From NCBI GenBank assembly GCA_001929475.1, contig LXFE01000257.1, forward strand, positions 1-64,000: DNA of 64,000 bases, in the 5' to 3' direction. Positions 17,788-63,260 of the stretch are shown piece after piece. The DNA comes from Neolecta irregularis DAH-3 (taxonomy: Eukaryota). The translations under genes were made by a program, and so were the position numbers. Positions within the stretch are counted from its first letter, which is position 1; every line of letters begins with the position of its first letter. Under the pieces are notes generated by a model. It had not been told where the DNA came from, ran no database searches, and worked only from the letters and a program-made list of their open reading frames with translations.

Positions 17788-17936
17788 AGATAAATTACAA
17801 CCATCGTCAGTAATAACAACAGAAGCTTGAGCCTCATCATCCCCTGTTCAATATCGTGCTATGCGGAATCATAGTAAAAAATCCAGACCTTGTTGCGAAA
17901 ACTCCTACTTGACACCAATCCAACCATCATCGTCGA

Positions 17937-19142: not shown

Positions 19143-19434
19143 ACCGAGAGCTTGGATAATCAGCAAGCACTATCTCGCCTGTTTGGAACTGAGTGTTACG
19201 CCTCTTACCGCCCCTCACGTGTGTTGTTGCTTGACCAGTCTAGTCTGAATAGACTTGGTTCGATAACTAGCGCTTGTAACCACCACGATTGGCATTAAGC
19301 TGAATCTGTTCTACAGCCAGTGCAGAAGACGAATTCCGTGCCCAACGAGTGCGGATTATCACAGCTGAGCGGAAGCATGCCATGTCTGAGCACCATTTGT
19401 TTGAGGTGATTCTTCAATACGCAGGTTTCTTATA

Positions 19435-22400
19435 ATGGAGGCCATTCAAAAATTGAAATCCGATAAGATCAAAGCCCGCATGGACGGTGTTAAGCTTTTA
19501 CATTCTCTAGTCATTGGACATGACATTCTGCACAAAGGCGATGATACCACCTATCTCAGAATATTGGGTGCATTATTCGACTCTGTCGAGATAGAAAGAC
19601 GCCTTTATGTTCGTGCGCAGAAAGCAGCAATCGAAGATCGTTTGAACGCTCTTGGTCTGACTATACGCGCTACTGTGACAAATGGCTGCCAAAAGTTTCG
19701 AAAGAAGTCAATTCGTCATTTCCTTTCAAACATTATACCGGCCTACGAAGAAGATATTGTTGCGCCACTAAGATCGCATTATATCAAAGCTCTTCGAGTG
19801 TTAATTACATTCGCTCCGCATCTTGAACAAATGGGGAACGAGCAAGTTTTCGTTCTTATAAATTACTGCAGAGATTTCATCAGTAGTCGGATTCGAAGAC
19901 AGAGTGAGATGATGGGTTTTGACGAAGAAGTTCCAATACATAAGGCTGCAAAAGAGCAGTCTCATTTGAAGAAGTTTGATCTAGACAATGTACAAAACAT
20001 CATGGCATGCCTCGATCAAATCATCAAATCCTATGCCAATCGGCTTTCTGTTTTCCCTGACGAATATACCAGACAGATTACTGTCCTCGCGTTTGATTAT
20101 ATTCGCCATTATAAGGCAGATGTGATAGGGATAACACATGCTGTATCAGCTTTGACATGCATCGCAGAATACTTTACCACCAACGATATCTCTAGTGCTG
20201 GCGGCATCTGCGCCGACTTTTTGAGCTTGATGAACTATCTTTGGCCAACGAGATCAATTGTTCTCCGATGCCATCTAGCTGCTTTGTTTCTTGTACTACA
20301 TCCGTTGATATCGATCATTCAGAGAGACGATGAACGAGTGGCCGGATTGTCTGAAATCCTACAATCACTCTTCGATGTTATTTATGATGGCTACATCTCA
20401 AACATCAACGTCGAACGTCTCCAGATGGACCAAGTTGCTTTCGGATCTAGGCCTGTCGAAGCCGAAATATTTCCCGTTATGAAGTTTCCTTCATTTCAAT
20501 TACATTGTGAGGACCCAGAAAAGGCTGAATTGCCCTGGTCCACTGTCTTCATTATGTCACATTTGATGCTGCAGTTGGAGCTCAATTGCGAAACTCTCCA
20601 AGTGCCACCCACGGATGAACGTCCAGCAAAACGACACAAATCATTAACCAATCTGCAAAGCTTAGTTGGCCGCCTTACAGTGGACTCAGAAATCGCCACG
20701 ATTACGGTATTACAAATTTTATCATTTGCCTTCCATATTGATGCAAGATTTTCAGAACGACTAGAATTGGGATCTTTTCTGCATGTACTCTGGCAACTAG
20801 TTGATCATGAAGACATTTCAGTCCAATGTTGGAGTATGTTATGCATCGCCAGTCTTGTCTCATCTTCAAAACCTGAACTACTCACTCCAGAGGTCTCGTC
20901 TCCTTCTACTTGGATGAAACTCTGGAAAGTTGTCCTGCGAAAGTCTTGCCTTCCTGGTACCTGTCGGTTTTCCAGCCATCTCTTGCGAGAACTTCTTCGA
21001 TCGCATGTACTTGATCTTTCGGAGCTTGAGCAATCAATCTTAGGCACTTTGGAGGTAGACCAGATTGGCGCACCTGCCGTACTCTGTGATAACAGTCTTC
21101 GATACTGGGAGATGCTTTTCTGCATTCGCGAATATCTCGGCGGAGAGCTGTCATCCAATCTGCATGAATTCTTCTTGAAATGGTTTGGTAACAAGTGGAT
21201 CCCATCTGAAAGTATTGGTTTTCCGGGTTATCATCACAGATGCTACTATTCGGATTCTAGTACATTCCTTCGAATTCTGAGCTCCTTTGGCTGTTTCGAG
21301 ATCATTCAGTCATCAGTCCCTCCCCTCTCTTTGAAAGGCGTCATTGGAAAAGCTTGTCAGAGGCTGAAGATTCGTTCAAATATCTTTCAGTATCTTATTG
21401 AAGGCCAATGTCCTCACGCGAGTATTAAACGAGAAAATATCAACAGCAAGGATATTCAGATCCCATATTTACGGGTTCAAGGCGTTCCGAAATTGATTCA
21501 GTTGCTCATCAACAAATTAGCCCAGACAATTAAGTTTTGGGAAGAAGCATTGAATTCTAAGAAGACACCAGCTGTCGAACAAATCCAATATTGGGGAGTT
21601 CGAATGTATGAAATCGTTGCATTTACCTGGGCTGCTATTTCTCAGGAAGAACACCAAGAAGGTGCAATGGATCTGCTTTACAAGGCGGATGCTTTCCTCT
21701 CTGTTCTTCGGAATTGTCTCGAAATATCAACCGCTATCAAACCCCATATCAAGACAGAAATATTCGCTTGTATCATGGATTTATCTTTGAAAACTTTCAA
21801 CCATCTTTCGAATATTTCACGAATAAGTATTCGACCTCTGCTGGAAACCCAATTAGAACTTTTCTTTCAGACTATGACATCTCAGAAGTCCGTAAATCCC
21901 AACACAGAATCCCTCATTGATCCAGATTTTCACAGTAGCAGCTCAGCTCTGAGCTCTGATCAAGAGGCGATTCCCTTCGAAGATGAGTTTCGAAAATATG
22001 AAAGTTGTCACTGGTCAATTGAAAAGTGGAATTATTCAGTCATCGAAGACATTCGATATCAATATGACCTCCACCTTTGCAGTCAGCAGTTAAGTCCTTC
22101 TTACATCCAGGAGCGCGTGCGGAGCCTTGGACGAATGCAATCTTTGTGCGCAGCTCAATCATTTCTTCACCATGTGGACCGTCTAAATGCTGCAGACTTT
22201 TCAATGATTATGAAAGCGCTTGCAGAACAATTCCTGGAAGGAAGACATGATCAGTATCTATATGGCCTCTGCGATTGTGTTGTTGTCACTTTTATTGAAT
22301 TTTTGATTGCTTCGGTGCCGACATGGATGTCTTCGCCACCTGAAGAGAAAATCGGCACGATTCTACAGTTCTTCCTAAAATTGATTCTCTCGGGCACCAC

Positions 22401-41512: not shown

Positions 41513-41559
41513 GGATGTGAGGGCGGATGGTGCCTGCGGCGCAGCTTATAAGTCCGCGC

Positions 41560-41615
41560 GCATAGCTGGCCATCTCGCGTCTGCATAGCTGCTGGCCATC
41601 TCGCGCAGACGCGAG
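41560..41615. repeat. Overlapping direct and inverted repeats just upstream of the protease-like gene
   Basis: gcatagct(gct)ggccatctcgcg at 41560-41579 and 41583-41605. Inverted arms ctcgcgtctgc (41574-41584) and gcagacgcgag (41605-41615). TATA-like cttataag at 41545. Confidence 0.75.
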
Positions 41616-42886: not shown

Positions 42887-44386
42887 TCACAAATCCTGAA
42901 ACACTAAAGCCTGGTCCCTCTTCTCCATCCATGATTCAAAAATGCTTTTCCGGCTGCTTTTACCGCCTTCAGTTACATAGTCGTCAATAAGATCGGCCTC
43001 GACCCATTCAAAATATTTATTCCGTACTCGAGTTGTTGCAGGTAGCGTGTATTTCCACGCTTCAGTCATCTCACTAGATTCGTTCTCTTCATTCTCTTCC
43101 GATTTTTTCTCAACTATTTTATCCTGGCCCGACACTACAACTACTTTGGCTCCGTATCTCCTTCCGAGAATCGCCGCGCCTAGTGAACCAACCTTGTTCA
43201 ATACATCGCCGTCGGCCGAAATACGATCTGCTCCGATAACAACGTGTGTTGCCCTTTGTGCAAAAATTCCCACGCAGGCGTCACTTGCGATTTCGATGTG
43301 AACGTTCTCGTGCGAATCTAAACTTAGGATTTTAGCTAGTTTAACTCCTTCAAACAGAGGACGCGATTCTATGGTATTTAGCAAGCCATCTCTAGGATAA
43401 ACTCGAATACCTAAAACTGTGATTCTTACTTTGATTTCTAAAGGTAATTGGGATAACCAGTGTTTCAAAACTATTGCCGTCGTTGATGAATACGATAAAG
43501 TGAGTATATGTATCTTTTCATACCCATCCAAACAAGCTTTAAACCCCAAAACCTGCTTTTCAAGTCGTAAACACCCGCTACTCTTTTCATTTTCAACTTC
43601 TTGTCGAGTAATTGAAGCCAAATCAAATTTACTTGTAGCAGCAACTAGTCGTTTTTGAATGTTGGTTAATACCCGGGCTAATGAACTCTCCATTGCAGCT
43701 TTCATACTCTGTCTAGATTGAACGGCATAATATCCAACAAGACAAAGTCTACCAAAAGTAATTTGTGACTCTTGGACAGCTTGAATTAAAACATCCAGAG
43801 CCATTTCACTCATCTCTCGAGCTCCCATTTCTCGATCCGTTTGTAAATTTGAGATCAATTTGCAGATTTGTTGAGGTATATATACACGTGCAAATGTCTC
43901 TGATAGTCTAGGTACAGTATCGTATGTTGATAGATCTTTTGGGTTGATCCATTTGTAAGTTGAATGTTCAAAGTCGATGGTGATTGAAACGAGTTGCGAA
44001 TCCTTCATTTCGAAAAGAAATGGATAGATATGCCACTTGTTTATTTCAGTTCCGAAAATATCGTATACCAAACCTCGGTATCTAGATTATCATCTTTGAT
44101 AGCCATTTCCAATCCACTTATGATCAGTGTAATATCTTTGCGATCGAGTCTAGTTTCTTGTTCGATCTCGATATAGGATCGTTCAAGTGGAGACACATCG
44201 TCCTCTTCGATACTTCCGCTGATGCCAGCCCATTTACCTCTGCGGTATAAGTCCTCTAGTACGCAAATAAATTACAAACTGATATGTGTTGACTTTTCCC
44301 GATCTTTGTAATAAAAGTAATTTCACATCATCGCCCGAATTGTGTCGGCCAATAATAAATGAAGTGACAACTCTTTTGATTTTCAT
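42887..44386 (-). CDS. Nudix hydrolase domain fused to an eIF2B-related (IF-2B / ribose-1,5-bisphosphate isomerase-like) domain, 4 exons
   Basis: LLLLQRSGKVNTYQGKWAGISGSIE...EIEQET, WHIYPFLF, FEH..YKW; then ILTLSYSST, LESRPLFEG, VVIGADRI..DGDVLNKVGS, RNKYFEWV. Confidence 0.85.
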
Positions 44387-45702
44387 GGTGTCAAGTTAAA
44401 TGTGGAGCAAGAAATTTCAAAAACGTAATCCATACACCAAAAGAATATAAGAGGGCGTTTTGCAGCCACTTTATTAGCCTTCGGATTTGCGTCTTGCAAT
44501 CACAAAGTAGCAACTATTTCATGAAATTCGAAACACTGGTCCAGACCAGTTTTTCGAAAATGCAAAATGTAAAATTCCCAGAGTCCACCCATCATCGCTA
44601 CCCCCCCAATTCATCTAAAATCGTGAACCCACTCGAAGGATTTTCTATCATAACCAAATTTGGACAATTCCTTAAGTGTCACAAGATGGCCTTGATATTT
44701 GTATCTATCTTCAATTCCTTCAGAAACGCTAACAAAGTCAACATTGATGTTTGCGTGGAAAACTTCATGTTTTCTGATCTCATGATATTATTTTGATTGT
44801 GTAGCAATTTCGGGTAGGTTCGTGGAGACTTTGACTTTTCTTCTCACTTGGAGATTCGATTTATTTGAGGAGGAAGCGTGGTTTTGGTTTCCTCGAGACT
44901 GAGATTAGGAGAGAGAGTTTGTAGAGATTATGAAGGTATTAAAGAGGGTACATTGTGATTATCGCAAAAGACTGGCTCCAGGCCTCTATTGATAGTCCCA
45001 ATGTTCTCCTATCCAGCAGAGGGGCGAGAAAAGTAGTTAAGGAAAGACAAGGAAAGAAGGAAAATATTTAGTGCATAAAAAAAAGAAGAGAAAGAAGGGA
45101 AATGACCGTAGGGTGCTTGGTGCTTACCATTCTGCCAAAGAGACTTGGGCCAGGGATTCGGTAACCCCATCGGTTTTCTGCTAGAAAGGGGTTCCCAAAT
45201 TATGATATTTGCGGGGGAGGGAAAATGGTGAGTATTGTAGTTGATCGCGAGAAGGGTTTGAGAATACGACGATAGGTGAAAAAGGGGGGCAGGTATTCAT
45301 TCGTTTAGGCCGTGAGAGAGAGCGGAAAAGGAGGGGAAATGCAAAGGAGTGTATTATGTGACGGCATGCTAGAACGACTGAGGGTAAAGGCCGAGGGGAA
45401 TTACGGTAGTGAGTTAATAATGCGGTGAGGTGGAGAGTATGGTTACGATGATATTGTGTGGAAAATGTGTCTCGTACCACATGCCAAACGTTGACAAACT
45501 AGATACATGGGTTCTCTAGTTTTAATTAAACCCCGCCAACCGGAATAAAAAGAAATTAAACTTTATCTCTGAACACAAAGAATCTCAAAATCTCAAAAAC
45601 AAAACTCCGGCATTGCCAGAACCTCGAAAATCAAATCCCTCCATTAACCCTAAACAATCCAACTTTTTATACTACAAACAAACAAACAAAAATATACTAG
45701 TT

Positions 45703-48700
45703 TTATTTCCTATTTTCTACCACTCGTTGAAGAGTTGCCATATTTACAGGTTTTGTAAGAAAATCATCGACGCCAGCCGCAAACGCTCTATCACGATCTT
45801 CATTTGCAGCAAGACCAGTTAATGCGATTATCTTTGATCGTTTACCATTTTTACGTTGTGATTCTATTTTTCTAATTTCGGCAGTGGCTTGAAAGCCGTC
45901 CATTACAGGCATTTGGATGTCCATGAGAATAAAATCGAAGCCTAACGGTTCTGTTATGAATGCATGGACGGCTTCTAGGCCGTTGATAGCTTGGACAAAA
46001 GGATATTTCCCCTTACGCATTAAAGTTATTAAAATCTAAAGTTAATAAATCAAGTATTTGGGGTCGAACCATGGCGTTGATGCTGTTATCTTCTGCAAAT
46101 AAAATGTATGGCTTTTTGATTGAACCAAGGGATTCGCTTGATGAACGTGGCAAGTAGGATAATTCAGTAGAGCTGGAAGAAGTAGTAAATGGAGATTCAT
46201 TTGTATATGATGAATTGGTGGGGCTAAAAACAGTTGACGGAGCAGGAGCCAGGAGATTTGAAGTAAGATGATCGACAACCGTAGCTGGTTCGGCAGAAGA
46301 TAATAAACTATTGATCCCATTGGGTGATGTTTTTTGTCGCTTGCCGCCGATGAATGGAGCTGGTTCAGATGGCGATGAGGTACTTTCTGAAGCAACCATT
46401 CCTAATCCTTGGAGATACACCATTGACGTCTCTAACGATCCGCGACGACCACCGATTACAGGAGAAAATCGAACAGTACCATTTGCGACATTTACATTTG
46501 GATAGGAACCATTGCGACTTCGTGCAGCGATGTTATGTTCTTGATTTAAAAGGCAAAACATTATAGCTTTTGCCAATTTTGATGGTCCGCACGGTTTTGA
46601 TACAAAATCTATAACACGACCGAGATCAGCTTGATTGGCCATATTTTCATATCGGGCAACATTCGAGCATAAAACAATCATTGGTCGTGCGACTGTTTTT
46701 CCAGTTTTTGTGGATTCAAGGTATTCGTATAAATAGTGTGGGGAATCGTCGGTTATTATCAAATCAGCGGCTTCGACGTCGTGAACGATGTTTACTCCAA
46801 CCCAGTGAATCAGGTATCTCCGCATAGAGTCTGCAAGTTTCAGAGAGGCTTCGGATTGATCATCTGATGGAGCAATATGTGCGGTAAAAGAAGGTACACT
46901 GCTATTCAGCAAGGAGAGAATATCGATGGTAGGGTTCTCAAAGGACGATTCATTGAGTGACAATCCGTCCATATTGACGGAGGATTTTACAGGTAACAAG
47001 ACAGTCGCTTGGGTTCCATCACCAAGTTCACTCTGAATATCAATCTCCCCGTCTAGAGATTCGACTAATTGCTTCACAATTGAAAGACCGAGACCAGCTC
47101 CGACTTGGAGTGGGTTTTCTTGCATAAAGGGTGCGAAGAGATTTGTTTTGAGAAAACTGCTGGCTATACCTTTACCAGAATCGGATATGACCAACTTGAG
47201 AATCCCCTCGTTACTTTGCTCAGATGCAGTTTGTTTGTTTAGGCTCATGAAAACTCGAACGAATCCTCTGTTGGTGTACTTTAGGGCATTACCCACAAGG
47301 TTCATTATTATTCGTCGAAAGGCGCCTTGTTGGATTGGAAAGACGTATCCATTTGGACGATAATCGACATCAATTATAACCGTGAGAGGTTCCCTTTTGT
47401 TTTCGCTCATACTGAGTACGTCGGATAATCCTTGCATACCCTTGAATTCATAACCAGCATAACAACTCTCGGCGACTTGTTCAACTATTTCCACTAGATC
47501 TACTGCATTCTCTCGAATGGCTAAAACAGAGGCATCGTCTGAATGGGGTTTCATATTGGCGAGATGTCTGAGCTTACTGAAATCAAGAACATGATTGATG
47601 ACGTCTAGAAGAGTCCTTCCACATTTATCAATTGTATCAACGAAACCAGTTTGAAGCAAATTCATTTTGGTATCAGAGAGAAATTCTGCGCTGGCCAGGA
47701 TTCCATGTAGAGGGGATCGAAGTTCGTGGCTGATATTTGAGATGAATGCAGCCTTGGCACGATCTGCGACGATGACTCTGCGTTTGACGACTTCTGAGAT
47801 GATTTGGTCGCTAAAAGCCTCGAGATAACCCTGTTCTTGATCGCCAAATGTAGAACATGTAGAACATGACCAAGCACAGCAAATAGCGAATGGTTGGTGT
47901 CGGTGATCATATATGGGAACCAATAAAACAGACTGCGTGCTCTCTGGAACTAGACCATTCAGTTCTGGAGGAAGACCATCGTCGAACACATGACCGCTGG
48001 GATAGAGTCGGAGAAGGGAGGCAGCGATAGAACAGTACCAGGCGCCATGTGATGCGTGGTCTAGATCAGAGGCTGAAGAAGCAAGGAGCGGAAGAGGAAC
48101 AAGGTTGTCTACAGAGCTGGTTGAGAGTTGTCCATTGGTGGAATTTTCTCCGCTAGGAGAAGATGGCGATGAGAATGGGCAGTCTACGGATTCGATATCG
48201 ACAAAGGAAACACCGTCTATTTCGAGGGTATTGCGAATAAGGTCTGATGCGGACTGGAAGAGGTTGCGGAGGTCGACTTCGTCATAGTCGCAATCGCAGT
48301 CTGAGACGCTTGCTCGCTTGTTCCTGACGGTGCTATTGAAGAAGCCACGGGTGAATTCTGAGATAGAGTTTTGCATCTGAGACTTTACAGAGAGACGGCG
48401 CCTGTCTCTGCGGAGTTCTATCTCGCACATGATGCAGTGGGCGAGGTCTCTGAGGCCCTGCTCGGCGGAGGGGGGGGTATCGCGGGGCCGGGTATCGAGG
48501 GCCTATGTTTGAGAGGGGATCTAGAAGTGGCATACGCAGATTGTGCCGATGTTGTGGCCATCTCGAGTGCGCAGTGGCACGCCACAGTAGAATTTGATGT
48601 AGGTCGGTCCTGTGACAAAGGGATTGTTGTTGAATCGCCAGTCTTGGGAGAGATCGCGAACGGCAAACATGCGGTCTGATTGACGAAGAATTGTGTGTGA

Positions 48701-49158
48701 GCAGATGGCGAGCGGACGGGGCAGCGCAAGGCCGATGAGATTTAACGGGCCGCTTTCCTCGACGACGTGTACAAAGGCGTCGTCGATAAAGGTGACCTGG
48801 TGGTTAATGCAAGGAGACAGCACGCACGTACCAGGACGCTGGCGGGTCAGCAACGCCCTAGCAGGACAACATACGTCTGGGCGCCAGTGATAATGGAGGC
48901 GAGCCGGGAGAAGCGCTGCAAGTCGAGGGCAGGTACTACGGGCGGCGAACGGGCCAAGTGGCCGAGCAGGTCGTAGCGGTACAGCGCCTTGAGCCGCGCG
49001 GCGTCGCTGGGCCCATACGGCGACTGGAAATTCACAGCATCGCCGAGTGCGGGGGGTGGCCGTGTGCCCGGATGGTCAATGTCGCCTGCCGCATAGCGCG
49101 CAAGAAAGATGTCGGCGGCAGCATCTGTGAGATTATCTTCAGCAACAGCAGACTGCAT
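45703..49158 (-). CDS. Hybrid sensor histidine kinase (GAF-GAF-HisKA-HATPase-REC), 5 exons
   Basis: GAF (ICSHTI, DWRFNNNPFV, FYCGVPL), H-box FISNISHELRSPLHGIL, N-box NLVGNALKYT, DSGKGI, GLGLSIV, REC AEDN..ILMDIQMP..FLTKP. Contains a 7-nt exon at 48832-48838. Confidence 0.92.
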
Positions 49159-49332
49159 CGCACTGGGTCGCAGTGGCACGAATCTGGGGCTGAGGCTGGT
49201 TATCTGGTCGCGGCCAGGTTCGCCAGGGCGTTTGGTGGCGATCCCCAAGCATTGGCGCGCGCCATCCAGTGTTCATTCAGCCTTCGCCGTCCATATTCCT
49301 CGCTGCCGCCCGCTTCCCCTGTGGGTGCCCGC

Positions 49333-50866
49333 ATGGACCTGTACATCCGCGGCGCTGCCATTCTGCGCCTGCTCGCCGCCAAGAACGGCTCCCTCAAAGC
49401 CCTTGCCACCTCGTCTCCCAACTCAAAGCGCATGTATGCTCTCCTGTGCCAATCCCTTAAATGTATATATCGGTTTAATAGTCTTGTTCTCATCATCTGG
49501 AGACCAGGATGTCCTCAAGCAGGTCATCTGCTCATCCCGACTGCTCGAACAGGAACAAAGGGTTGCTCTTCATATCCCAGTCGCTGACGCCTCGTAGCTT
49601 TCCCTTGAAATCGCTCTTCTCCTCGTCCACGACCTTCTTCTCTGCAAGAACGGCATTGCAGCAGGCAAGGGGCCCTTCAAAGACGCAGTCCTCCGTCACA
49701 AAACACGTCTAAAGGCAGAATTCGCAAGAGCAAAGATTCGCTCCCGTACAGTCGAAAGCAAGGATTTGGAGAGAAAAAATCACAGTATCTCCCAGGCAGA
49801 CATCTCCCCACTGACCTGCAGAAGTCCTGCCAAGGTGGGTTCGAATAAATACCCTCAAAACAACCTTGCACTCTGCTCTCGAAACCTGCCGAAATGACTA
49901 TACAGAGGTCGAGAATTGGTCCCAGCTCTCTCCTTCGTCATTCTGTATCGATGCCCTCATCCCGAATTTGCTTGCTTTTCATTCTTCCTGCAACCTGATC
50001 ACCCACAACCTATACACGGTAGGTCACATCATCCTTCAAGACAAAGCTTCTTGCTTCCCGGTACACATTCTCAAGTATATCATTGCATATGACTGCTTCT
50101 GACATTTAGTCCACCCTTGGGGGCCTGTGTGATAGATGCTTGCGCTGCCCCAGGAAACAAGACCTCTTACCTGGCAGCCTGTGTCGGAAAGCAAGGTCGA
50201 GTTTATGCATTCGAACGAGACAATCAAAGGGTCCAGACCTTGTCTACTATGATGGAAAAGAGTGGTGCTGACTGTATGTATGATCAACACTCTTCGATAT
50301 TGACATCAGGCGTACATATTCAACATTTAAACTTTCTCAAATCCAACCCTTGCAATTTCGCTAATGTCACGCATATGTTGCTCGATCCGTCGTGCTCCGG
50401 AAGCGGTATAGTCAATCGATTGGATTATCTTGTAGAATCTCAACAACAAATTGATCAAGACCGGTTGGCAAAACTGGCCGAATTTCAAGTCCAAATCATC
50501 CTTCATGCTATGAAATTTCCATCCGCAAAGAAAATATCTTATAGTACATGCTCTATACATCCACAAGAGAATGAGCACGTCGTGATGAGAGTCCTCGACA
50601 AAATCCAAGATTGGACCCTTGCTAATCAACAAGACGTCCTCCCAAGTTGGGAAACACGCGGTATCGCTGAAGAATGCGGTGGTGATAAAGGTTTACTTCT
50701 TCATTTTGGAATTCCTCTTATGATAGATCTCGCCCACAGCCTTGTGAGGTGTAATCCTGGGGCTGATGGTACTATTGGATTCTTTGCCGCGCTTTTCGTC
50801 CGAAAGTCCTCAAATAAACGCACACTACAAGATCCTCCTACTTCCAAAAAGAAGAAACGCAAGTAA
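49333..50866 (+). CDS. RCM1: 25S rRNA m5C methyltransferase Rcm1/NSUN5, 7 exons
   Basis: PRWVRINT, ILQDKASCFP, DACAAPGNKT, DPSCSGSG, YSTCSIHPQENE, GFFAALF. Confidence 0.92.
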
Positions 50867-50963
50867 ATTAGAAAAGATTAGTAAAAGGCCCATTGTAATT
50901 CCAACCATGAACAATATATCATCACCAAAAGCCATCCCTATCCAAGAAAAGTGCCCGCTTTGC

Positions 50964-51337
50964 TCAACCACCTTGCAATTCTAGTTGTATCAAATTCCTT
51001 TGTGCCACAGATCTCCGACAAACCGGGCATGATTTCGATGTCTTCAGAGCGCTCTGGATACAATATCCACAGTATAAATGACCTGCGAATGTAAACTACT
51101 GGTCCTCCCAAATCGCATACCGCAAGTCGTTACAACGGCATCTGTAGGACCTTCTAGACATATCACGCATTGATGGGCAGCCATATTCTTCATTGAAGTA
51201 GGTTTCGGTGTTAATTGGGGTCCAGCTTCTGCCAGACCATCTTCGATAGTGAGATCAACAACTCTAGGTCCTTTCGAAGATGGTCTTCTCCGAGGATATG
51301 GAACTGGGCGATTTTTCGCGGATTCGCCAGCTGGCAT
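50964..51337 (-). CDS. Small SIM + C3HC4 RING protein (RNF4/Rfp/Slx8-like STUbL candidate), 2 exons
   Basis: SIM-like VVDLTIED; RING CVIC...TCG|HLYCGYCI...CPVCRR after splicing. 3' end could be extended by another intron. Confidence 0.75.
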
Positions 51338-51437
51338 GAGGATATCAATGTAGTTGAGGCAGGCGATCGGGATAAACCGGAACCATGCTATTTTTGAGGT
51401 TTAATAGAGTCCTTATTCCGGAAGTATAAAACAGCAT

Positions 51438-52663
51438 ATGCCGCCGTTCCACATTTCGATTGTGAATTGTCGGTCGGATCTTGGAAAACACCTCCGCGAA
51501 GGAGCTGTGGATCCGGAGGATCGATTATGCTATGCTTGTAATCACGAATTACCTTTATCTTACATTTCCTTGATCGACATTTATCTCAAGAGTTGTACTG
51601 TCCATGAACCAGCTGGAAATTCAATTCGACTTCCGACACCTCAGAGTCCATTGGTACAAGACTTTATTTCGCAAAATGCGCCTTCGTTGTCTACAGTACT
51701 ATCCACTACACACCTTAAAGACTCTCTGACCGTCGGAATCGATAAATGCGATCGAAAAGGAGAGATAGTTTCGATACCATCACATGTTCAATGTTCTTTT
51801 ACCACAGAACAAGACTCTTCAACAAATACGAATTTGATAGATGTACCTTTTAGCATCAGATACCTCACTTTCCATGACCGACCAACAGATAACCACAAAT
51901 ACATTAAAGTCACTATCGATCATCATGGATTTTCAGAGTCAGGTTACGTTAGAATTAAACCTACCGCAACGGATTTCTATTCATTTGGCGTATTCGACTT
52001 GTCTAGTATAAATTTCGGAACAGTCCTTCCAAATGAAAATAAAATCCCAGTCAACAAGTACGATCGATATTGTATCAGCAAAGCCCTTGGAACTACCATC
52101 ACTTTTGATTCTCTCGCTATTTCACCGATCCGAGCGTGTCCTTTAAATCCTTCCAAATACCAATATGTTGTTATTAAATATGGTGTATTCCCCGATTTAC
52201 CCTCTGCGCCGGGGAAATGCGGTCTTGTCCTTGATTTAATGAGCAATTTTCCTTCATATCCTCTTCGGGTATTTACAAGTCGGACCGGAACGTTATGGCG
52301 TTATCTCGGTATATACACACCCCTTTCTGGTATACGTCTAGTGTTGATTGAATAGGAGACTATCTGTTTAATATATATGGAGAACTCGATCCTTGTACGT
52401 CTTGGGAAATTTTACCTGAAGTGGAACGCGAGCATTGGATTAAATTCTTTATATCGGGAAATAGAAAACTTAAATTAAGTCGTTTGATCGAGATGGGATT
52501 CACGAGAAGAGAATCTCTTTCCTGTACCCCGGAAGTTGTAAGGACAGCTTTTGTAGAAGGTCGTTTAAGACTACGGTTGGTTTTGGTGAAATTTGTCATT
52601 TACGATCAAGAGTTTACGGAACGGATGGATCGTTTTGTTGTTACGCTAAGAGATGCTACATGA
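51438..52663 (+). CDS. Uncharacterised fungal protein, C-terminal DUF6697-like domain, 2 exons
   Basis: Long ORF with PDLPSAPGKCGL, LRVF and WRYLG|DY after removing a ~47-nt intron. Domain assignment from memory. Confidence 0.6.
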
Positions 52664-53729
52664 ATATTCTTTTATCTGCCACGGAATCTTGGAGATAATT
52701 TAGCGGATCATTGGAAGTTGAGAATGTAACGGCATTTTACTTATCTTTAGCATATTAAAGCATATATATCAAGCAGACTTGGTTTTATCATGTAGCATCA
52801 CTAGATAACTATGCTTATACAGCACTTGCTAGCTTATATGATGCGAGAGTAACAAACGTTTGGGGACACTTGATAGCCTAAGTGAACCAGTCTTTGTTCA
52901 GGGAGTGCAATACAAGATGAACGTAGTGGTACAAAAGTTACATAGTTGTAGAAATCTCCAAGCTGGGATTCTGTCTGCCTTTTGATGATGCCGAGAAAAG
53001 AAACGGGGGTGGGTTATATTCCTCTATCTGGAAAGTGGAAAAGTATTATATGACAGAACAGGCTTTCCTCCACGTCGGCAGGGAGTTAAAATAAGAAACA
53101 GGAAATCATCTACCCCCGAAAGCTACCTAGTAACTCCTCAGGCCCACGCATACTCCTAATGGTCGAGGATACTCCAGGGTAAACGACTGCCATAGGACGA
53201 GGCTCTCCTTTTTCCGATTTGGTGATTAATTCAGGGACTGTAAGGAGCATGGATCCTGTAATTTGTGCGATAAACTTTGGTTGAATGTCCCAGGTTGCAG
53301 TTCGATAATGCTGTGGGATGGTGACAGTGGCAACCCCGTGGATCGCATTACTGTGAGTAACGTTGTGCCCGACAAAATAGAACACATGATAGTTTTGTAA
53401 TGAAAACATTTGCTTAGTACCCAAAGTAACACGATACCCCATATCCGGATAATGAAACAATACGGCACAGTGAAAAGACAGTTGTGAAAGTGATAACATA
53501 TTCTCAAATGCGAACTGGTAGACGATTGCTTGGCACAGATTTTTTTTCGCGCAGGAAGTTTGAAAAGCTGTTAATCGAGTCCGTCAAATTTAAGTGACTG
53601 ACAAAAAGTGAAAAAGGTCAATCAATTGCTTGACGAAAATCGTAAAGTTGGTGTATGATGTAGAATTTTGGCTTTGACCACTAAATGAGAATATATCCGC
53701 ATCGCTTGGACAACGATCCTTGAGAACTA

Positions 53730-54182
53730 ATGAACGACGAAATCAACAAACTCGATGCATCGCTGAAAGGCTTAATTTTACAAATTGCGCAGATTTACCG
53801 GGCACGAGACAAATCTGAAAAGATGTAAAACATGGGATACTATTACTATTTACTCTCCTAGAAATGTTCCCACGTCCGCGTTTGGTCTGCCCGACACATT
53901 ACAAAAGGAATTGGAAAATAGGCTGGGAGAGTTTCACCAGGCGTGTGATGATATTGAGATACGATTGGTATGAATTGAAGTAGCCTCAAGAGGCTGATTA
54001 TTCAGAAGAGAGCAAGAGATACTATCTTGAATGAGATGAATGGTCCTGCAAGTCATTCAACACCGGTTGCAGTAAATGAAACGCCTGGAAAGAATGTGTT
54101 GGATTCCGGCGCAGCTGATAGTGATGTGAAAATGGAAGATTTGTTTGGAGATGAGACTTTGCAATTCGAGACGGGCGACTAG
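53730..54182 (+). CDS. Probable Mediator tail subunit Med29/Med2-like, 3 exons
   Basis: Helical LDASLKGLILQIAQIY and ELENRLGEFHQACDDIEIRL|KRARD, resembling the Med29 EEFYALCDQLE helix. Introns 53825-53861 and ~53968-54005. Confidence 0.55.
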
Positions 54183-54330
54183 TGTTCGCATTGCCAAGTA
54201 CACAAATAATTTAAACAAGATTCCTGCATCACCCATTTCCAATATAAAAGCATGCGGAAAAGACAAATGTAAGAGAATGAAGACGCTTCTGTACAATATG
54301 ACAACATATGTATTTACCGTCCCAACCAAC

Positions 54331-55510
54331 CTAGGAGATAGCAGCAGTACTCGATGCTCGAGTCCCGTCATCGACAGGGAGCGGAAGACCAGCTTCACCT
54401 AATGTGCTAGACTCTGCGGGTGCGTGATGGAGACTTGGGTCTGGTTCTTTGTTGAGGTGAATGACCATACAGGTAAGATTATCAGTAGTGAACTGTTCAA
54501 GAGCATAAGCAACGAGCTTCTCGCTTGCGACAACCGGGTCTTTGATATCCCGGATGAGGTCGATTGCTTGTTGATCTGTGCATACATCCCATAACTATAT
54601 ATGAGACAAGACAAAAATGTTAGACTCACCCCATCGCATGCTAGGACGAGAATATTGTCGTCTTGGTCCAAAACGGTTTCGGTGGTAAATGGTCTGCTGG
54701 TGATGAGGTCTTTCATATACGCATCTCCAAGAGCTCGAGTTACAGCCAAGACACCTGCTCGTCAGTAAACGTATTATATAAAAAGCCTCCCATTAACACG
54801 ATTATTGAGAATTAACCCTCCAGACTCCGCGATTCTCTTCATTTCGTTTTCGTCACTTCCTTTATGATCATAACTCAGTCGAGTAGCCTGTCCTCCACGA
54901 CTTTCATCAATTCTAAACTCTTCGATAGCAGATACCTTAACACAGCCCGTGCATCCCCAACATTGGCTGTATATAGCATCCGGGATTTTGAGCCGTCCCG
55001 TTGTTCCCATCTAACAAGAGCAGTGACTGCAGTACATCCACAATGTTTCTGAGGGATGCTCTCCAAAGCCTTGTCTGTATGATTGAATGCGGCATCGAAG
55101 AGATCAGTGATGGATGCCTCAGGGTTCTTCTGGATGAACTCCTTGAAGAGAATATGGAACTTTTGACCACACCAATCCGCAGCTTCTCGGCCAGCATGTC
55201 CATCAAATATGCCAAAGAAACCCTGATCATCCACGCCAGCATAGTCATATTGATATATATGTGTATCCTCCATCGTCCTTCGGCATTTCTTGTTGGTGTC
55301 CTCTGAGACACCAACGCGAAAGGTAGTGGTAGGACCGGGAAAGCTAAGTTTCAATTTTGGCTTCGAAGACCGTCTCGGAGCTGGGGAGTCTTCCCGGGGC
55401 TTTGCGTCGGGTGATGAGCTGAATGGATTCATTCGAGATATTGCTGCAGAAAGAGAAGAACGGCGGCGAGAGAGCGATTTTTGGACATCGGAAGTGGAGG
55501 CTGAAGCCAT
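54331..55510 (-). CDS. PTC1: Type 2C protein phosphatase Ptc1, 4 exons
   Basis: [56 protein letters not shown]. Intron 54755-54790 has a GG donor. Confidence 0.93.
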
Positions 55511-56784
55511 GAATAAGAATTTGAGGTGGAGGCCGGATTCAGGGATTATTATGGTAGGACTCGATAGCTATGATTAACGGCAGGGAATAATATTTGAGAG
55601 TCATATACACAATGATGAATGTTTGAGGAGAAAAGGAAACAATTACGAACAATCAATCATGATATACGGATGATTTCTCAGGTGACAGAATTGGATGCAC
55701 TACTTACTTTGTTGTCGATAACACAAACACCTTGAATTAAGGCGAAATTCTGGGCCAGCCGAATGCAATCAAACCTGGATATAACAAATGTGGCTTGGCA
55801 GCGTTTCGTCATAAGGAGGATTCGTTGTATGGAGATAGCCGAATAGAAAATAAACAAGATCCAAGCAAATCCAAACCGAATGAATCAGAGAGAAAAATAA
55901 CTTGATTCTACCATCTATATCATGATGATGATGTATATGATTTATATGCCATTTTTGACCACATCTACGTAGAGAAAGTCCAACATCATGTCTTCTATTA
56001 CAACATAACATAACCAGATGTTATCCGTTGAATTCACTTCAGAATCTTTTGCTTGGATTCAAAAAGGGCTACTCCTGGGGCCAGGCCGGGGCGGGCCTCA
56101 GGCAGTGTTGCGGATGGGCCGTGCCACTGGCTTGGCGCCGGTGCTGTCTGATCGTGGGGCCTGATTACATCCCCACAAGCCCACTCATTTGTCAAGTATT
56201 ATGGCAAACAAACACTTGCTGCCCTGAATACGCTTGCTCGTCAAAAAGCTGACGTAGCAGTCCAATCAAAGATGGTAAATGGTGAGCAACCGACGGTCAA
56301 GCTTTATGAATTGTTTTCTGTCTTTCCTCTGATCAGCTTTTTTCTGCACGAAATAAGGCTCTTGTCGTTGTTATCCTATAGCAATGGACCTGGCCTCATT
56401 CTTTCAAGATAGCCAGAATGCAATCTCTAATTTTCTCCTCCATTTTGAACAAAAGCAAGCCTGCTTCCCTCTCGAATTTTCACCTGCCCTTGCCCAAAAT
56501 TTAAAGTCAGCTCAAAAGATATACTGAAATTGCAACCCACGCTGTTTCAGGTCTTGCTTACCCTATCATCCCCAACTGTAGCCTTCTATTTCTCTGTAAC
56601 AAAACACATGTTTGCCAATGATGGATACATTAAGAATTCTATACCATATTAGTCAGATAGTCCACCTCCACTCCCTTTCTAATTGAAAAACGCCCCCAGA
56701 GGATACCTAGTGATTTTCCTGGTAGATATGAGTTGATTCCATGATATCCAATCAATGGGAGTAGGCGGCGCCATTATTCTTGTC

Positions 56785-57558
56785 ATGACTTCCACCCCTC
56801 TAGTCACTCCACAATCTGCGAGATTCTCCATCCCTCAATCGTCTATCGCGTCTTCTGTGCGTGCCTCTCTGTTAAAGCGATCTTCTATCTATGACAAGAA
56901 CCTAAATCGTACCAAGGGAGCTGAAACCAGCTTGTCTGCCTTTTTCTTCCTCTTCTCGGAGCTTATTCAGAATGTCCAACGCCAGGTCCAGGCAATCCCT
57001 GATCTCGAGAGAAAGTAAAACAATGCCTCGCTCTGCGCATGAATTCTGATTAGGCGAGGTTGAACGAGCACGGCTATCGTGTGGGTCAACGTTCTCTCGA
57101 ACTGATTATCTGGAGAGATCGGAATTCAAAGAGGGAAACACGGATTTTGTCACTTCTGCAATTCATACATACCTTTATTTGGAAAAGTCTGTTTGCCAAG
57201 ACTGCAGATGATTTAGAGAGAAGCACGGAGAACGATGACGAATGCATGACAGTATATTATGTATTCGAGTTAATAAGTGCAGATATGATCTATGATAATG
57301 ATCCCTTGGTCAATCGTTTCATCTCGGTGCCCAAAGAAATGTCGAGTCTCAATTGCGGTGCCTTTGTGGCGGGAATCATAGAAGCCGTATTGGACGGTTC
57401 TCAGTTTGTATATACCGTAATCGAATAAGAGAGATGCTGACTTGTAGCCCTCAAGAGTAACGGCCCATTCGTCCCCAACCGAAGCATTCCCGCAACGAAC
57501 AGTGTTCCTGATAAAACTGGATAAATCGGTGTTAGAACGCGAACAGTTCCTCAAATAA
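56785..57558 (+). CDS. TRS31: TRAPP complex subunit Trs31/TRAPPC5, 4 exons
   Basis: [45 protein letters not shown]. Introns 57015-57058 (GAG acceptor) and 57244-57282 (GC-AG). Confidence 0.93.
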
Positions 57559-57595
57559 AACGCCCATTTACATCCTATATCCCTTTTCCCAATGG

Positions 57596-58733
57596 CTAAC
57601 TCCTCCTTCGCTTAGACCCTCGGTCGTCCTTCATTCCACCCATTTTATTCAATGTACGTTTATTGATTGATGAATTTCTATCAAACCACGCACTATCTCG
57701 TTCTGTGGTATCTTGGTCGACCAAATGTGTATACCGCGTTTGACCAGCCTTGCCGAGTTTTGACAAGTCTTTCAACTGCATTGGCTTGGGAAGATTTTCT
57801 TTGTGCAGGGCGTCGTCTTGGACGGTTTCGAGATAGTTCCTGTTGAGAATTTCGTCGTCCTGGATATGGTTTAATATGAATATCATTTATGGGAAATATG
57901 TAAAATACCTGGTAAAACGCTCCTTTGTGCCAATATTTCTGCATGAACCGCATTTTCTCTTTTGGTTTCTCTTTTTGGGCGTCTACCCATTGCATATCCT
58001 CTGCCAATCTTTCCTCCTCGGTGAGATTTTTTCTTCGTTCGGCTTCTTCGATATCTTTCTCGCGTTGGATGAAAAAGTCTTTTTCTCGTTTAATTCGTTG
58101 TAGTTCGCGGAGCTTCCAGGTTGCTCGTTCGGCGGCGGGATCCAGATCATCAGTGTCAAGGATATCCCCGCCTTCGTCATCGCTTGATTCTTCGACCTCG
58201 CGCTTCAACTGTTGATCGATTAGGAGATGGGTATCTTCCTTATTGTTTGAAGAGACGATGGCATGGGAGTTTACATCCACTACAGTGTTTCTTTTGGGTC
58301 TGCTCTAATAAGCGAATAACGGCAAAGGGAGAGACTTGGGTATAAAGGTCGGTTTTAATAAAACCCTAGGTTTCTCCTCTTCACTTTCACTTTCTTCTTC
58401 CTCGGAAGATTCTGCCGTTGTATAGTCATCACTGTGATCTAACGGTGCAGCAGCTATCCTCTGGGATTCCTCGATCCTCGCACGTTCCTCCTCTGCCTGT
58501 TTACTTTGTTGAAACCTCTCATTTAGATCGACGTTCTTCAAGGCAATTGTAGGAGCGGATATTGAAGGTGCAGAGGGTCGTTGGTCTGTTTCTTGCTGCT
58601 CGTCGGCTTGAGAGTCTTCATCTTCAGGGGAACTCTCTCTTTCTGGAGCAGGGGCAACCCCTGGGCGGTAGCGAGGCGCCTTTACGACTTTTGTGAGCTT
58701 GCGATTGGCGCCTTTGTCTGCTGGTTTTCCCAT
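57596..58733 (-). CDS. MFAP1: Spliceosomal B-complex protein MFAP1/Spp381-like, 3 exons
   Basis: RYRPG, LKPTFIPK, WKLRELQRIKR, FMQKYWHKGAFYQ, GKAGQTRYTHLVDQDT. Confidence 0.9.
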
Positions 58734-58996
58734 TTTGATGGGGTAGCGTTGACGAGGGGGGCACAGGAGAAGCAAAGATGGAGGGATATTGGAGGTAGAT
58801 ATTTCTATACAACTATTCGCATGGGTACAGTTCAGAGAGAAGAATACAAAGGGTATCGTCTATCTGTGAATACTATGTGAGGGCGGCGATGACAGCAGCT
58901 GATCCAAACAGGGGCAACGTTTTGTTTTTAAAGTCCGCTGGACCCTAATTAACGGCAGTTGGGGCGCATATTTGTTTTTCCTGCCGGGGCGAGCGG

Positions 58997-59004
58997 GTAT
59001 AAAA
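58997..59004 (+). promoter_or_regulatory. TATA box of the U5 snRNA gene
   Basis: gtataaaa about 35 bp upstream of the predicted U5 5' end. Confidence 0.6.
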
Positions 59005-59033
59005 ATGGCAGGCATGGCCAGTCATGAAGCCCT

Positions 59034-59150
59034 ACCCTTCCGCACGAGGGGACGTCGAACGTATCTCCTTCTTGCCTTTTACCAGATGGAGCCGGGCGTC
59101 CGCTTGGCTAATGCGGATATGCAGTTTTTGGAATCCCTCTCTGAGGGTAA
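59034..59150 (+). ncRNA. U5: U5 spliceosomal snRNA
   Basis: Invariant loop I GCCTTTTAC (59074-59082) in ctccttctt...cagatggag stem followed by CCG. Outer stems tccgca/tgcgga and ggacgtc/ggcgtcc. Sm site AGTTTTTGG (59123-59131). 3' hairpin ccctc-tct-gaggg. Ends are approximate. Confidence 0.92.
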
Positions 59151-59335
59151 TCTTTTTGTCTCTTTTCGGGGTAGAACTCGAACAGAACCAGGGAGATAGT
59201 AGTAGTGTTTGTAGTGATCCTGTCTGTAGAATGCTGTAGTGGTGATAAATCTGCTGCCCTATTTATCTGCTGTCCATTTAATATAGGCATGCCAAGTCTG
59301 AGTTGTGGTATCTGTCACCTCCCCAAAAGATAGCA

Positions 59336-60376
59336 ATGGACAAGAAAGACTTCATCGGCTTCGGTGCTACTCTTTCTCTCCGCGACGGGGCTCAAGTCAA
59401 GGGCAAGATCCGCGATGTCGACCCGGCCTCTCAGACGCTTTATCTGGACGATGGTAGCTCTACCTGTCGTTGTTCCATCCTGATCCCCAGTAAACATCCA
59501 CTATGTCGGCCCCTACAAATTCAGAGGCAGTGATATCCTCGACTTGTCCATGTTCCATATCGAGACTCCCCGCTCGCTCGTCTGCTCCCCTTACCAAATG
59601 CACTAAACACTTATTCTCGCAGGACTCGCCGACCCCTACTCGACCAACCCTTACTGTATCTGTCTGCCGCACTGCCATGCTCAACCCATAGAACACTGCG
59701 AATCCGTCAAAATCTCCAGATCAGCAGTTTTCCAAAACCAACCTCGAGTCTACCCAATTCCGTCCTCGAACCGCTCCTCAACAACAAAGAAAAAAGACTG
59801 GCGCCAGAAAAACCCCCCGTAAGGCTCAGATTCCCTCAGACTCGGAACAATGGGCCCATGATGATGTCGAAAACATCCTCAAAGCTCCAGATTTCGACTT
59901 TGAAAGTAACTTGGAATTGTTTGACAAACAAAAAGTATTCAATGATATTAGGGTGCCTGAATCCCACAAACATTGCACTTTATTAACAATCTCAGGAATT
60001 CGATGATACCGATCCACAATTACGACTAGTAGCCACCAACAAACGTCCTAAAAACTTATCTAACAGAGAAAATGTCATCCAAGACTTTACACACACTCGT
60101 TACCGTTTACAATCCAGTAAAGTCATCCCACAGTCAGAAAATCCTCAAAAAGTCGCTGAAACACCCCGGAGAAGTAATTCAATGTCAAGTATTACGGACA
60201 ACCTCGGGCTCCAGTTGACCGTCTCACCTCGCCCTCGACGCCGAGATATACCTCGCAGAAAGAGACGCGAGGATGATGATGCCGGGCCTGGGTGTCCTGA
60301 TGAGGAATTCGATTTCCAGGCAGCTTCTGAACGCTTTGATAAAAAACGGATTTTTGAAGACATTGCTCGGGGATAA
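59336..60376 (+). CDS. EDC3: Edc3-like decapping enhancer (Lsm + two FDF motifs, no YjeF_N), ~5 exons
   Basis: N-terminal Lsm (FIGFGATLSLRDG..VKGKI..GSDILDL), DFDFESNLELFDKQKVF..DPQLRLVATN, and second EFDFQAASERFDKKRIF at the C-terminus. Confidence 0.75.
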
Positions 60377-60633
60377 ACTAATAAACTATCACACCCAAGA
60401 TCTTGGACTCTTCTCTTTCCATAGGTGATTTATATGCTACTGTAGGACTTTTTCATCTCAATTTATTTCTTATACAAGTGCTATAGTAGTTACACATTCC
60501 CGAGCACATATCTTTCCGTGAACTGAAAACCAAACCGTGACTTGCAGGCTTGAAGTTGGAAACTACCAGTACCCGTTATCACTCTCTAATCTGCGCATTC
60601 CTGTCATCTATCCAATGCGCCAAGGTCATTGAG

Positions 60634-62753
60634 CTACCGAAACTGAAGTTTCCGCTGGCTTTTAGCTTCAGATGGGCTTGATTTCCTTTTACTCAACTTG
60701 ACAACCTGTCTTACTGAAGGGAGAGGCCGATCATCCTTAGATAAGCCTTTCGCGAAATGCCAATCGTCGTGTTCTTCGCGTTCAACAAATGGTATCAACT
60801 TCCCGTTGCATTTGTCGCACCGAAAACAGAACTCTTCGTCATGAAGAGTGGTGTAAGAACTAAGAGGTGATGCGAAACCTTTTGGTGATGCATATCCAGC
60901 TTCAGGGGAATAGTCTTTAGAGTTCTCAGTGTCGCTTGATCCGGCGTTATTTAATCCCTTTGATTTCTGTACGCCATCATGTTTCGTCTCTGATGATTCG
61001 AAAAATCTCTGAATTCCTCCTGTCTTAGTCTTTTTGAGCCCAGGTAGATGAAAAGATTCAGCTGTGCGTTTCGCCAGTTTGGCTTCTTCGCCTTTTAATA
61101 AAAAGGCCTAAGTATCATTAAACAACACCGCCGCGACAATTCTTACGGAAATGCCTCTCACTCCATCTTCAGCGCCTTCAAACCCGGTGAGACCAACGCT
61201 CAACATCGTACAAGGGTAACAACCATTTTCACTTTCAAGAGATTTCATTAGACTGACCGCCAGATAACTCGTATAGTCAGCCGTCAATTCCTTCCCAATC
61301 GGAATTGGTGCTTGACGTGATTTGTTGGCTCTATTAATACCCCGCTAGCAATAAGTATGGCCATGGGGAAGGAATATACATGATGAAGAGTAATAGTCTT
61401 AGGGCGCCTGGATAAGGGATCTTCGAGCAGTCTCGATGCAAGGTCAGCGGTCAATATGCGCATCCAGCGTTCCTGCTTTTAAGTTTTCATTCAAACGGGA
61501 TATTACCGCCTGCTCAATGTTGCCGATATTTGGTCGAAAATTCTTGGCGCTCATCATTGACTTGATCTGTGTTCGCGGGTTGACTAGCTGTCAATTACGC
61601 ATGAGTCCATGACGAACCTTCGGAATAATCAATGCCTCTTGAAATGGAATAAACCCAGGGCCCAGTTTCTAGGCCGAGTTTTCCTCGCAGTTCGTCAACG
61701 GAAAACCTCCTTTCACTGAGTCGGGGTCCGACACCAATACATGTACCAAAGCTCTCGACATAATTCGGTATTCAAAGATTCAGACACTTGCTCCCCCAGT
61801 TTCCCGCCCAAGTTACGAATTTTGGTGAACTTTAAATCAGCCAAAAATCCCATAACTGCTCGATCGCGGATAATGGTCTGCAATTAGCCCGATAATTGCG
61901 AGCGTGCTACCTGTTGATTCGGTTTCCGATAGGCAGAGCAAAGTTTAGCCAGCATTTTGTTCTTCGCAACGCCTGCTGAACAGGTATATTTAAGCTCTTT
62001 GAGAACGTGCAAACGTATATCTCTAACGATTTCGGCGCCAATCTGCAGACAGATATCATCCCAATCAGGAGGACCTTCCTCTGACTCCTCTTGTGACAGA
62101 GGAATTAGAGTGCCATGATCATCGATCCAATTACATGCAAGAGGAAGAGGAAGGTTGCAGGAGGCGTCGCCGTCGGGAGGAAAGGCTAGATAGGGGTACC
62201 TGTCTAGTAATTTTTCCCTAACAAGAGTAGAGAGATCAAGAAAAGATTCTGGGGTGATCAACTCATGTTCAGCGGCTGGAGTATGTACCGTCTACAGAAG
62301 CCTTCTCTGAAAGTGAGATATTGTATTAGCGGAGATGCAGTACCAACAGTATCGCAGTGCTGTCGGAAAATCTCGAGAATCTTCCTTCCCTCTCGGCGAT
62401 AAGGATCCAGAGAGACTACGCATGAGAAAGAGCACGAACCCCAAGGCACCTTTGTGGGTGGCCATATCGGGATTCAGATGATAGTGAGGCTTAACCTGGT
62501 CCTCCTTCCAAGTTTGGACATGCTGAAGAACCAGATGAGGACATTTCAGTAGCGCAGACTCGATGGTCTCATGGCGTGTCAACCCAAAAGCTCGGGCTGG
62601 GTAGTTGACCGCAATTATGCTGCGCCATTGCTGTACTGCCAATGGGGTATCAGGGGATAGCTGCAGGCGAACAAGCTCGACTTGTGAGTAAAAAGCGTCA
62701 AGATCGATATGGGCAATCACGCGCAGTGGCGAATCTCGGGCAGGTGCACGCAT
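60634..62753 (-). CDS. RAD30: Y-family DNA polymerase eta, 10 exons
   Basis: HIDLDAFYSQVE, IAVNYPAR, KVSLDPYR, EKASVD|ESFLD, CSAGVAKNKMLAKL, UBZ (CDKC..EHDDWHFA), PIP-like QRKLQF*. Confidence 0.93.
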
Positions 62754-62989
62754 AGCGGCTGGCGCTAGATGGCGGAACGAAAAACGCGACGTCGCTGTTG
62801 CTGCCCAGCTGGATGGTGGTAAAGACATCGCTGGAGAGGTGTTTGCGACTTGGAGTGATAGGGCATCTATAGTACCTATTAATGCACAGTGAATGCTTCA
62901 CAGTAGACGCGATGAATGCGCACTAAACAATGACAGCAGAACACAGGTATGTTCAGGTAGGTGAGGCCTTGATGAGAATCCTGAGACTG

Positions 62990-63260
62990 GCACCGGTCTA
63001 GTATTGTTTAAATGTGATGGGTTGTAATGGGATAGTGTAGCAGAAGGGATGGACTGATAGTGTGTATATGCAATATGTAGTTGGATTGGCGGATGGTAGT
63101 GGGGATAGGGTCGTGATTCTTGATGGGACAGTCTATGGGATAGAGTAGGGTAGGGTTGTAGGATAAGATACGATGAACAGGATGGTGGATGGTGGATGGT
63201 AAATGAAATAGAATTGTGGTGGTAGATGGTAAATGAGATAGGATGTGGTGGTAGTTGGGG
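62990..63260. repeat. G/purine-rich low-complexity tract with a ~30-nt tandem duplication
   Basis: gatggtaaatga(a/g)atag..tgtggtggta at 63195-63224 and 63225-63254; gatggtg repeats. Confidence 0.7.

Follow-up and report, generated by a model that had tools for sequence, protein, structure and literature searches.

Evidence for a GG-AG intron in a PTC1-like protein phosphatase 2C gene of Neolecta irregularis

GG-AG introns form a rare but known class. The hand-curated annotation of Ganoderma lingzhi reports 20 GG-AG introns (0.0217% of ~92,000), together with 89,855 GT-AG and 1,706 GC-AG introns, and the count given for GG-AG introns in FlyBase R6.04 is 0. A human transcriptome survey describes a testis-specific GG-AG site in CPSF3, and it also reports that non-canonical introns are often mis-annotated to nearby false GT-AG introns. 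For a related departure at the same donor position, Frey and Pucker (2020) report that efficient GA-AG splicing in human FGFR genes relies on a canonical site located 6 nt upstream; their main text discusses GA-AG and does not contain the term GG-AG. The genome paper of N. irregularis describes an assembly of 14.5 Mb with 44% GC and 5,546 genes, for which both DNA and RNA were obtained from fruiting bodies. The words intron, splice and transcriptome occur 0 times in its main text, and its annotation methods are placed in the supplements. The alignments of a comparative Pneumocystis study contain 4,202 introns from N. irregularis. A literature search on introns and splice sites of Neolecta turned up no work on non-canonical splicing in the genus.

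In this study, we analyzed a 64,000-nucleotide stretch of the genome of N. irregularis DAH-3 (the window), in which a PTC1-like gene on the minus strand is interrupted by a 36-nt segment beginning with GG and ending with AG (Table 1). This segment, hereafter intron 2, is very probably a genuine and apparently constitutive U2-type GG-AG intron of N. irregularis or of a near-identical strain. Like the GG-AG introns reported from G. lingzhi and CPSF3, it departs from GT-AG at +2 only, has RNA support and is easily mis-annotated. Unlike the tissue-specific site described in CPSF3, it is apparently constitutive and obligatory, and it differs from the known GG-AG introns in interrupting a motif that is invariant in the catalytic domain of a housekeeping phosphatase and in its length of only 36 nt. 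With GC-AG introns it shares a single change at +2 that is processed by the U2 spliceosome, although GC-AG introns are far more common, at 1-2% of introns (1.85% in the G. lingzhi annotation, ~85 times the GG-AG figure there). With the GA-AG introns discussed by Frey and Pucker (2020) it has in common a purine in place of U at donor +2, efficient splicing and nearby upstream GT dinucleotides, here 7 and 9 nt away; its +2 base is, however, G rather than A, and the AG|GA..A context of those introns is absent, the exon ending in ATG.

Table 1. Features of the PTC1-like gene and the evidence on which each rests (positions in the window).
Feature	Positions	Strand	Evidence or remark
PTC1-like PP2C gene	54331..55510	-	ATG at 55510 to TAG at 54331; four exons
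Exon 1, 575 nt	54936..55510	-	Sequence; PF00481; X2 joint 54900->54936
Intron 1, 35 nt, GT-AG, phase 2	54901..54935	-	Spliced X2 contig; CT..AC on the plus strand
Exon 2, 110 nt, ends cgt gtt aat g	54791..54900	-	Sequence; PF00481; X2 joints
Intron 2, 36 nt, very probably GG-AG, phase 1	54755..54790	-	X2 joint; in-frame stops; homologue profile
5' splice site of intron 2, GGAGGC	54785..54790	-	Unusual +2 G at 54789 (C on the plus strand)
Putative branch site, TACTGAC	54761..54767	-	Read from the sequence
3' splice site of intron 2, CAG	54755..54757	-	Sequence
Upstream GT, donor in the deposited 354-aa model	54798..54799	-	45-nt intron 54755-54799; unsupported by the spliced contig
Exon 3, 125 nt, begins gt gtc ttg gct	54630..54754	-	Sequence; PF00481; X2 joints
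Intron 3, 35 nt, GT-AG, phase 0	54595..54629	-	X2 joint 54594->54630; CT..AC on the plus strand
Exon 4, 264 nt including the TAG stop	54331..54594	-	Sequence; PF00481

With the GG-AG intron removed, the coding sequence is 1074 nt long and encodes 357 aa. By its match to the whole-domain profile, the predicted product is a PP2C/PPM phosphatase that is PTC1-like. All four exon pieces match Pfam PP2C (PF00481; gathering cut-off 20.3 bits), with scores of 76, 33.5, 42.3 and 22.9 bits over positions 3-126, 130-165, 167-211 and 212-254 of the 255-position profile, respectively. Given that exon 2 ends at profile position 165 and exon 3 begins at 167, one position is left for the Gly codon that is split as g|gt. 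With the exon-1 translation (191 aa) as query, 1963 proteins were found at E<=1e-10 among 3234 candidates, and all counts of homologues given here refer to the best 120 of these 1963. Homologues with 33-56% identity are named "protein phosphatase PTC1" (JGI) or "Protein phosphatase 2C 1" (NCBI) in their sources.

On the minus strand, intron 2 (54790..54755) reads GGAGGCTTTTTATATAATACGTTTACTGACGAGCAG; it starts with GGAGGC and ends with TACTGACGAGCAG. The first-pass annotation of this DNA had given the same coordinates and letters, which agree with the sequence, and had argued that the segment must be removed because it holds an in-frame TAA. Translation through the segment (minus strand, 54821 to 54741) shows that TAA at 54776-54774 and, beyond what was first noted, a second in-frame stop, TGA at 54764-54762. 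The same annotation had held that only a phase-1 cut at GGAGGC restores the conserved PP2C motif. The motif R-V-N-G-x-L-A-V-[ST]-R-A-L-G-D is indeed intact only with the GG-AG junction, that is, with the removal of 36 nt, and it is present in 119 of the best 120 of the 1963 homologues. The sole exception is P0001, the deposited model of this very gene. In P0002, P0006 (Saitoella) and P0091 (Pneumocystis murina), the motif appears as NNRVNG[V/I]LAVTRALGD.

The junction was also scored against a profile built from 119 homologues, from which P0001 was left out. Every in-frame and stop-free junction with the end of exon 2 between 54830 and 54771 and the start of exon 3 between 54775 and 54726 was included (n = 678). 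The 36-nt removal obtained the highest score of all 678, 388.7 bits; four registers lead to this removal, all with one and the same protein, and three of them are compatible with the RNA evidence described below. Only three GT-AG (or GC-AG) options exist among the 678 junctions. The best of them, a 42-nt intron yielding ...NNPGVLAV..., ranked 151st with 370.9 bits, followed by the 45-nt intron of the deposited model (rank 164, 370.2 bits) and a 66-nt intron (rank 457, 337.0 bits).

The deposited model, P0001 (354 aa, "Protein phosphatase 2C 1 [Neolecta irregularis DAH-3]"), is the closest match in the search, being 100% identical over exon 1, and the second-best match to exon 1 has 49% identity (best 120 of 1963). 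Its start, introns 1 and 3 and stop are all identical to those of the corrected 357-aa gene. It differs in using the donor GT 9 nt upstream (54799-54798), which makes a 45-nt intron and leaves out three residues of the motif. This is exactly what the first-pass annotation had foreseen for the nearest in-phase GT (c|gtgtta, 54755-54799), namely the deletion of three residues. The deposited model thus forced a GT-AG intron onto the gene, at the cost of three residues of a catalytic-domain motif, and this is the type of mis-annotation described by the human transcriptome survey.

Contigs of two runs were aligned with the window over positions 44001-63000 (19 kb). Run X1 (labelled "DNA?"; 1.00 of the sampled words) may be the window's own source. 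Run X2 is also labelled "DNA?" (0.77 of the sampled words) and carries another organism label and another sample label under the same study code. The X2 contigs omit twelve short segments of 35-40 nt, 11 of which are GT..AG on the coding strand, and X2 is therefore taken to be spliced, RNA-derived sequence that is cDNA-like despite its label. One X2 contig with a depth of 455.6 contains the joint 54753->54790, in which exactly 36 nt are skipped and the shorter side is 111 letters. The same contig also lacks introns 1 and 3, as well as two GT..AG introns that belong to the convergent neighbor. The joint 54753->54790 contradicts the junction of P0001, and the joint 54754->54800 that the 45-nt deposited intron needs is absent among the 15 joints listed, of 36, for X2 and X1. 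The first-pass annotation had named use of the upstream GT in cDNA as the outcome that would speak against its reading; in the X2 contig exactly 36 nt are removed instead.

The convergent neighbor is a small gene on the plus strand beside the PTC1-like gene, with GT-AG introns at 53825-53861 and 53968-54005. Given that a single X2 contig (depth 455.6) runs through both genes in the stretch 53168-55872, their convergent transcripts overlap or abut in the 146 nt between the two stop codons.

The depth of X2 was 412.5 in the bin 54145-54778 and 422.6 in the bin 54779-55412, and the values expected if the spliced contig alone were present, with the introns bare, are 413.2 and 421.8. This close agreement indicates that there is no sizeable unspliced or alternative form in the contigs, which lose rare variants, so that minor isoforms or alleles could escape the comparison with X2 and X1. 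The depths also bear on a technical explanation, in which the joint is an artefact of template switching by reverse transcriptase or of contig assembly and the true mRNA retains the segment or uses the upstream GT. Template switching is described in the literature consulted as a known source of false non-canonical junctions, and the two ends of the joint have two letters in common; the joined form alone, however, accounts for the depth, and the shared repeat is just 2 nt. The segment moreover has the length of an intron, a branch motif and a CAG end, while retention would bring in the two stops and the GT option would delete three residues that are present in 119 of the 120 listed homologues. 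We regard an artefact as highly improbable.

The two shared letters (a "both" value of 2) allow the cut to be read as GA..GG (54789-54754), GG..AG (54790-54755) or GG..CA (54791-54756). The RNA cannot separate these three registers, and the mRNA and the protein are the same in each. The GG..AG register is preferred because it is the sole one with a standard acceptor and is one base off GT-AG. A removal in one of the other registers (54754-54789 or 54756-54791), with an acceptor that is non-standard as well, is very unlikely: it would depart from GT-AG at two or three bases, not one, and would neglect the CAG that lies at a typical distance after TACTGAC. Among the non-canonical U2-type pairs annotated in FlyBase, moreover, each is one base off GT-AG, with an invariant donor G.

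The donor base in the DNA was examined in X1. Record 6 of this run spans 53168-55872 at a depth of 431 with one other letter listed, and no alternative letter is listed in the X1 contigs at 54789, where the window has C on the plus strand. An A at this position, which the first-pass annotation had linked to an assembly error, is thus not seen in X1. Because X1 may be the source of the assembly, this agreement excludes an assembly slip but does not prove the genotype independently, and a difference between strains would leave it unchanged. At 53412, X2 has A in place of G (455.6 of 455.6) and X1 does not (0 of 431). Across the unique part of the 19 kb compared, no further difference of X2 from the window is listed, and no other letters are listed in X2 between 53413 and 55839. 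The G>A change may mark two strains or two alleles, or may have arisen at the RNA level. Together with the other organism label, it suggests that the RNA and the DNA may stem from different individuals.

It is therefore conceivable that intron 2 reflects a strain polymorphism or mutation at +2, in which the individual that supplied the RNA has GT and the individual that supplied the DNA carries a T>G allele that is unspliceable or mis-spliced. No X2 contig covers the letters of intron 2, so that the +2 base of the RNA source is unseen, and the differing organism and sample labels of X1 and X2 and the difference at 53412 are in line with two individuals. Against a polymorphism, the exonic kilobases covered by X2 in the 19 kb show a single listed difference, and a second one falling exactly at donor +2 is improbable from the outset. 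The T>G allele would also truncate a conserved phosphatase at two stops. True GG-AG introns, at about 2 in 10,000 in the curated fungal annotation cited above, are by our estimate at least as frequent as a coincidence of this kind. On balance we consider a polymorphism quite unlikely, and a GG-AG intron that is spliced in the organism itself remains the reading that we adopt.

Three other joints in the comparison, 45119->45448, 53025->53113 and 55801->55926, were rejected as introns; their sides are 24-25 letters, they also occur in the DNA run and they lie at repeats. High-copy repeats are found immediately upstream of the PTC1-like gene, at about 55800-55970, and at 44800-44930, and these two segments were not reported as repeats of each other. 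The summed depth of X1 contigs reaches ~6,700-19,800 in the repeat segments, against ~431-454 in the unique flanks, with many diverged contigs, loose ends and small indels listed. Every contig compared at 55878 (13 of X1 and 5 of X2) has A, where the window has G, and no locus-specific X1 contig covers 55873-55933. A tRNA scan of the window found none, which rules out a tRNA as the high-copy element upstream of the PTC1-like gene.

The anatomy of intron 2 was compared with that of other introns in the window. The RNA-supported introns (n = 12) are 35-40 nt long. A wider set of 44 entries, comprising these 12 and the predictions of our own gene finder in genes scoring >=30, ranges from 33 to 61 nt with a mode of 36, at which intron 2 sits. 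Among the 43 introns of this set that start with GT (11 RNA-supported and 32 predicted, one of the latter being the 45-nt option that the RNA contradicts), the donor consensus is GTATGT, with A at +3 in 27/43, T at +4 in 25/43, G at +5 in 21/43 and T at +6 in 20/43. Donors are thus weakly conserved from +3 to +6 (47-63% per position). GGAGGC agrees with GTATGT at +1, +3 and +5 only. The first-pass description of the donor as GTAGGC-like with T>G at +2 was right about the G at +2; the label itself is loosely apt, the local consensus being GTATGT. GC donors usually compensate for their departure with a strong consensus at the other donor positions. Compared with them, GGAGGC shows a strong remaining consensus only in part.

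The 3' end of intron 2 is, by local standards, typical or better than typical. Local branch sites are CTRAY-like and lie 6-12 nt before the AG, and intron 2, with TACTGAC 8 nt before its CAG, is the sole entry of the 44 with a full TACTRAC when inspected by eye. The putative branch A would be 54762, at a distance of 8 nt from the intron's 3' end. With respect to the features of U2-type introns, intron 2 is precisely removed, has a YAG end with a branch motif and is of suitable length; its 5' end is neither GT nor GC. U12-type introns, which are removed by the minor spliceosome, are characterized by the donor [A/G]TATCCTT and the branch site TCCTTAAC. Neither of these rigid motifs is present in the 36 nt, no complementarity to U11/U12 is visible, and the size of intron 2 is like that of its U2-type neighbors. 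Although a review notes that U12-type introns tolerate unusual terminal dinucleotides, assignment of intron 2 to this type is rated as extremely improbable because neither U12 motif is present.

How the U2 spliceosome may recognize such a donor can be proposed from these features. Given the ultra-short introns and the weak conservation of donor positions +3 to +6, recognition is probably of the intron as a unit. The near-perfect TACTGAC branch site, along with pairing to U1/U6 that may persist at G+1, A+3 and G+5 of the donor, could offset the missing U at donor +2. GT dinucleotides are located 9 and 7 nt upstream of the donor of intron 2, in GTGTTA and GTTAAT, respectively. By analogy with the GA-AG intron of human FGFR, we speculate that these upstream pseudo-donors might help to recruit U1. 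Inspection by eye of U1 pairing in shifted registers at the donor of intron 2 found nothing better than the normal register.

The window also contains a U5 snRNA gene at 59039-59149 on the plus strand, which matches Rfam RF00020 over its full length (1-117) with 65.3 bits, the gathering score being 40, and has the canonical loop 1 GCCUUUUAC and the Sm-site-like AGUUUUUGG. It lies 4 kb from the GG-AG intron, which is a coincidence as far as we can tell.

The first-pass annotation had extended its reading to the organism, concluding that its spliceosome tolerates variation at +2. Intron 2 is the one intron for which this is seen, the other 11 of the 12 intron-like joints being GT-AG. We consider it unlikely that the GG donor is not a one-off, that is, that the spliceosome is generally relaxed at +2 and that introns are defined mainly by their length and by the branch and 3' sites. 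Our ab initio gene finder, which used dynamic programming and scored either codons or a 3-periodic Markov model, recovered 3/12 and then 6/12 of the RNA-supported introns. At penalties of 7 and 3 for non-canonical donors it proposed no non-GT donors. The true GG-AG intron was missed every time; since a GT alternative was always taken there, its blank is uninformative about the frequency of such introns. At a penalty of 1.5 it proposed one GC-AG candidate, a 45-nt segment at 41534-41578 on the minus strand, which lacks RNA and homology support and may be spurious.

A metagenome scan for relatives of the PTC1-like gene returned 7 loci, of which one (L001) is fairly close and the other six are ~25-29% identical. 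L001, at 3142-4185 on the plus strand of a 38-kb metagenome contig, encodes a PTC1-like PP2C that is 65% identical to P0002 over 144 residues (tblastn). It has no intron across its RVNGVLA motif (SRVNGVLAITRALGD) or at the ACDGLWD junction, both of which are uninterrupted, and L001 thus looks like an intron-poor, yeast-like relative.

Intron 2 adds a well-supported case to the rare but known GG-AG class. For the public gene model, the consequence is a correction to 357 aa with an intact PP2C motif in place of 354 aa, and the case illustrates how pipelines that admit only GT-AG conceal such introns as three-residue deletions. If the spliceosome of Neolecta were relaxed at +2, G[A/C/G]-AG introns would be hidden across the genome, systematically mis-drawn by GT-AG-only annotation as small in-frame indels in the way that intron 2 was. 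Intron 2 itself offers a clean example from nature of a conserved enzyme whose production depends on the splicing of a GG-AG intron, and Neolecta, with its introns of ~36 nt and its weak donors, invites the question of how much variation at donor +2 is allowed once an intron is defined by its branch site and its length.
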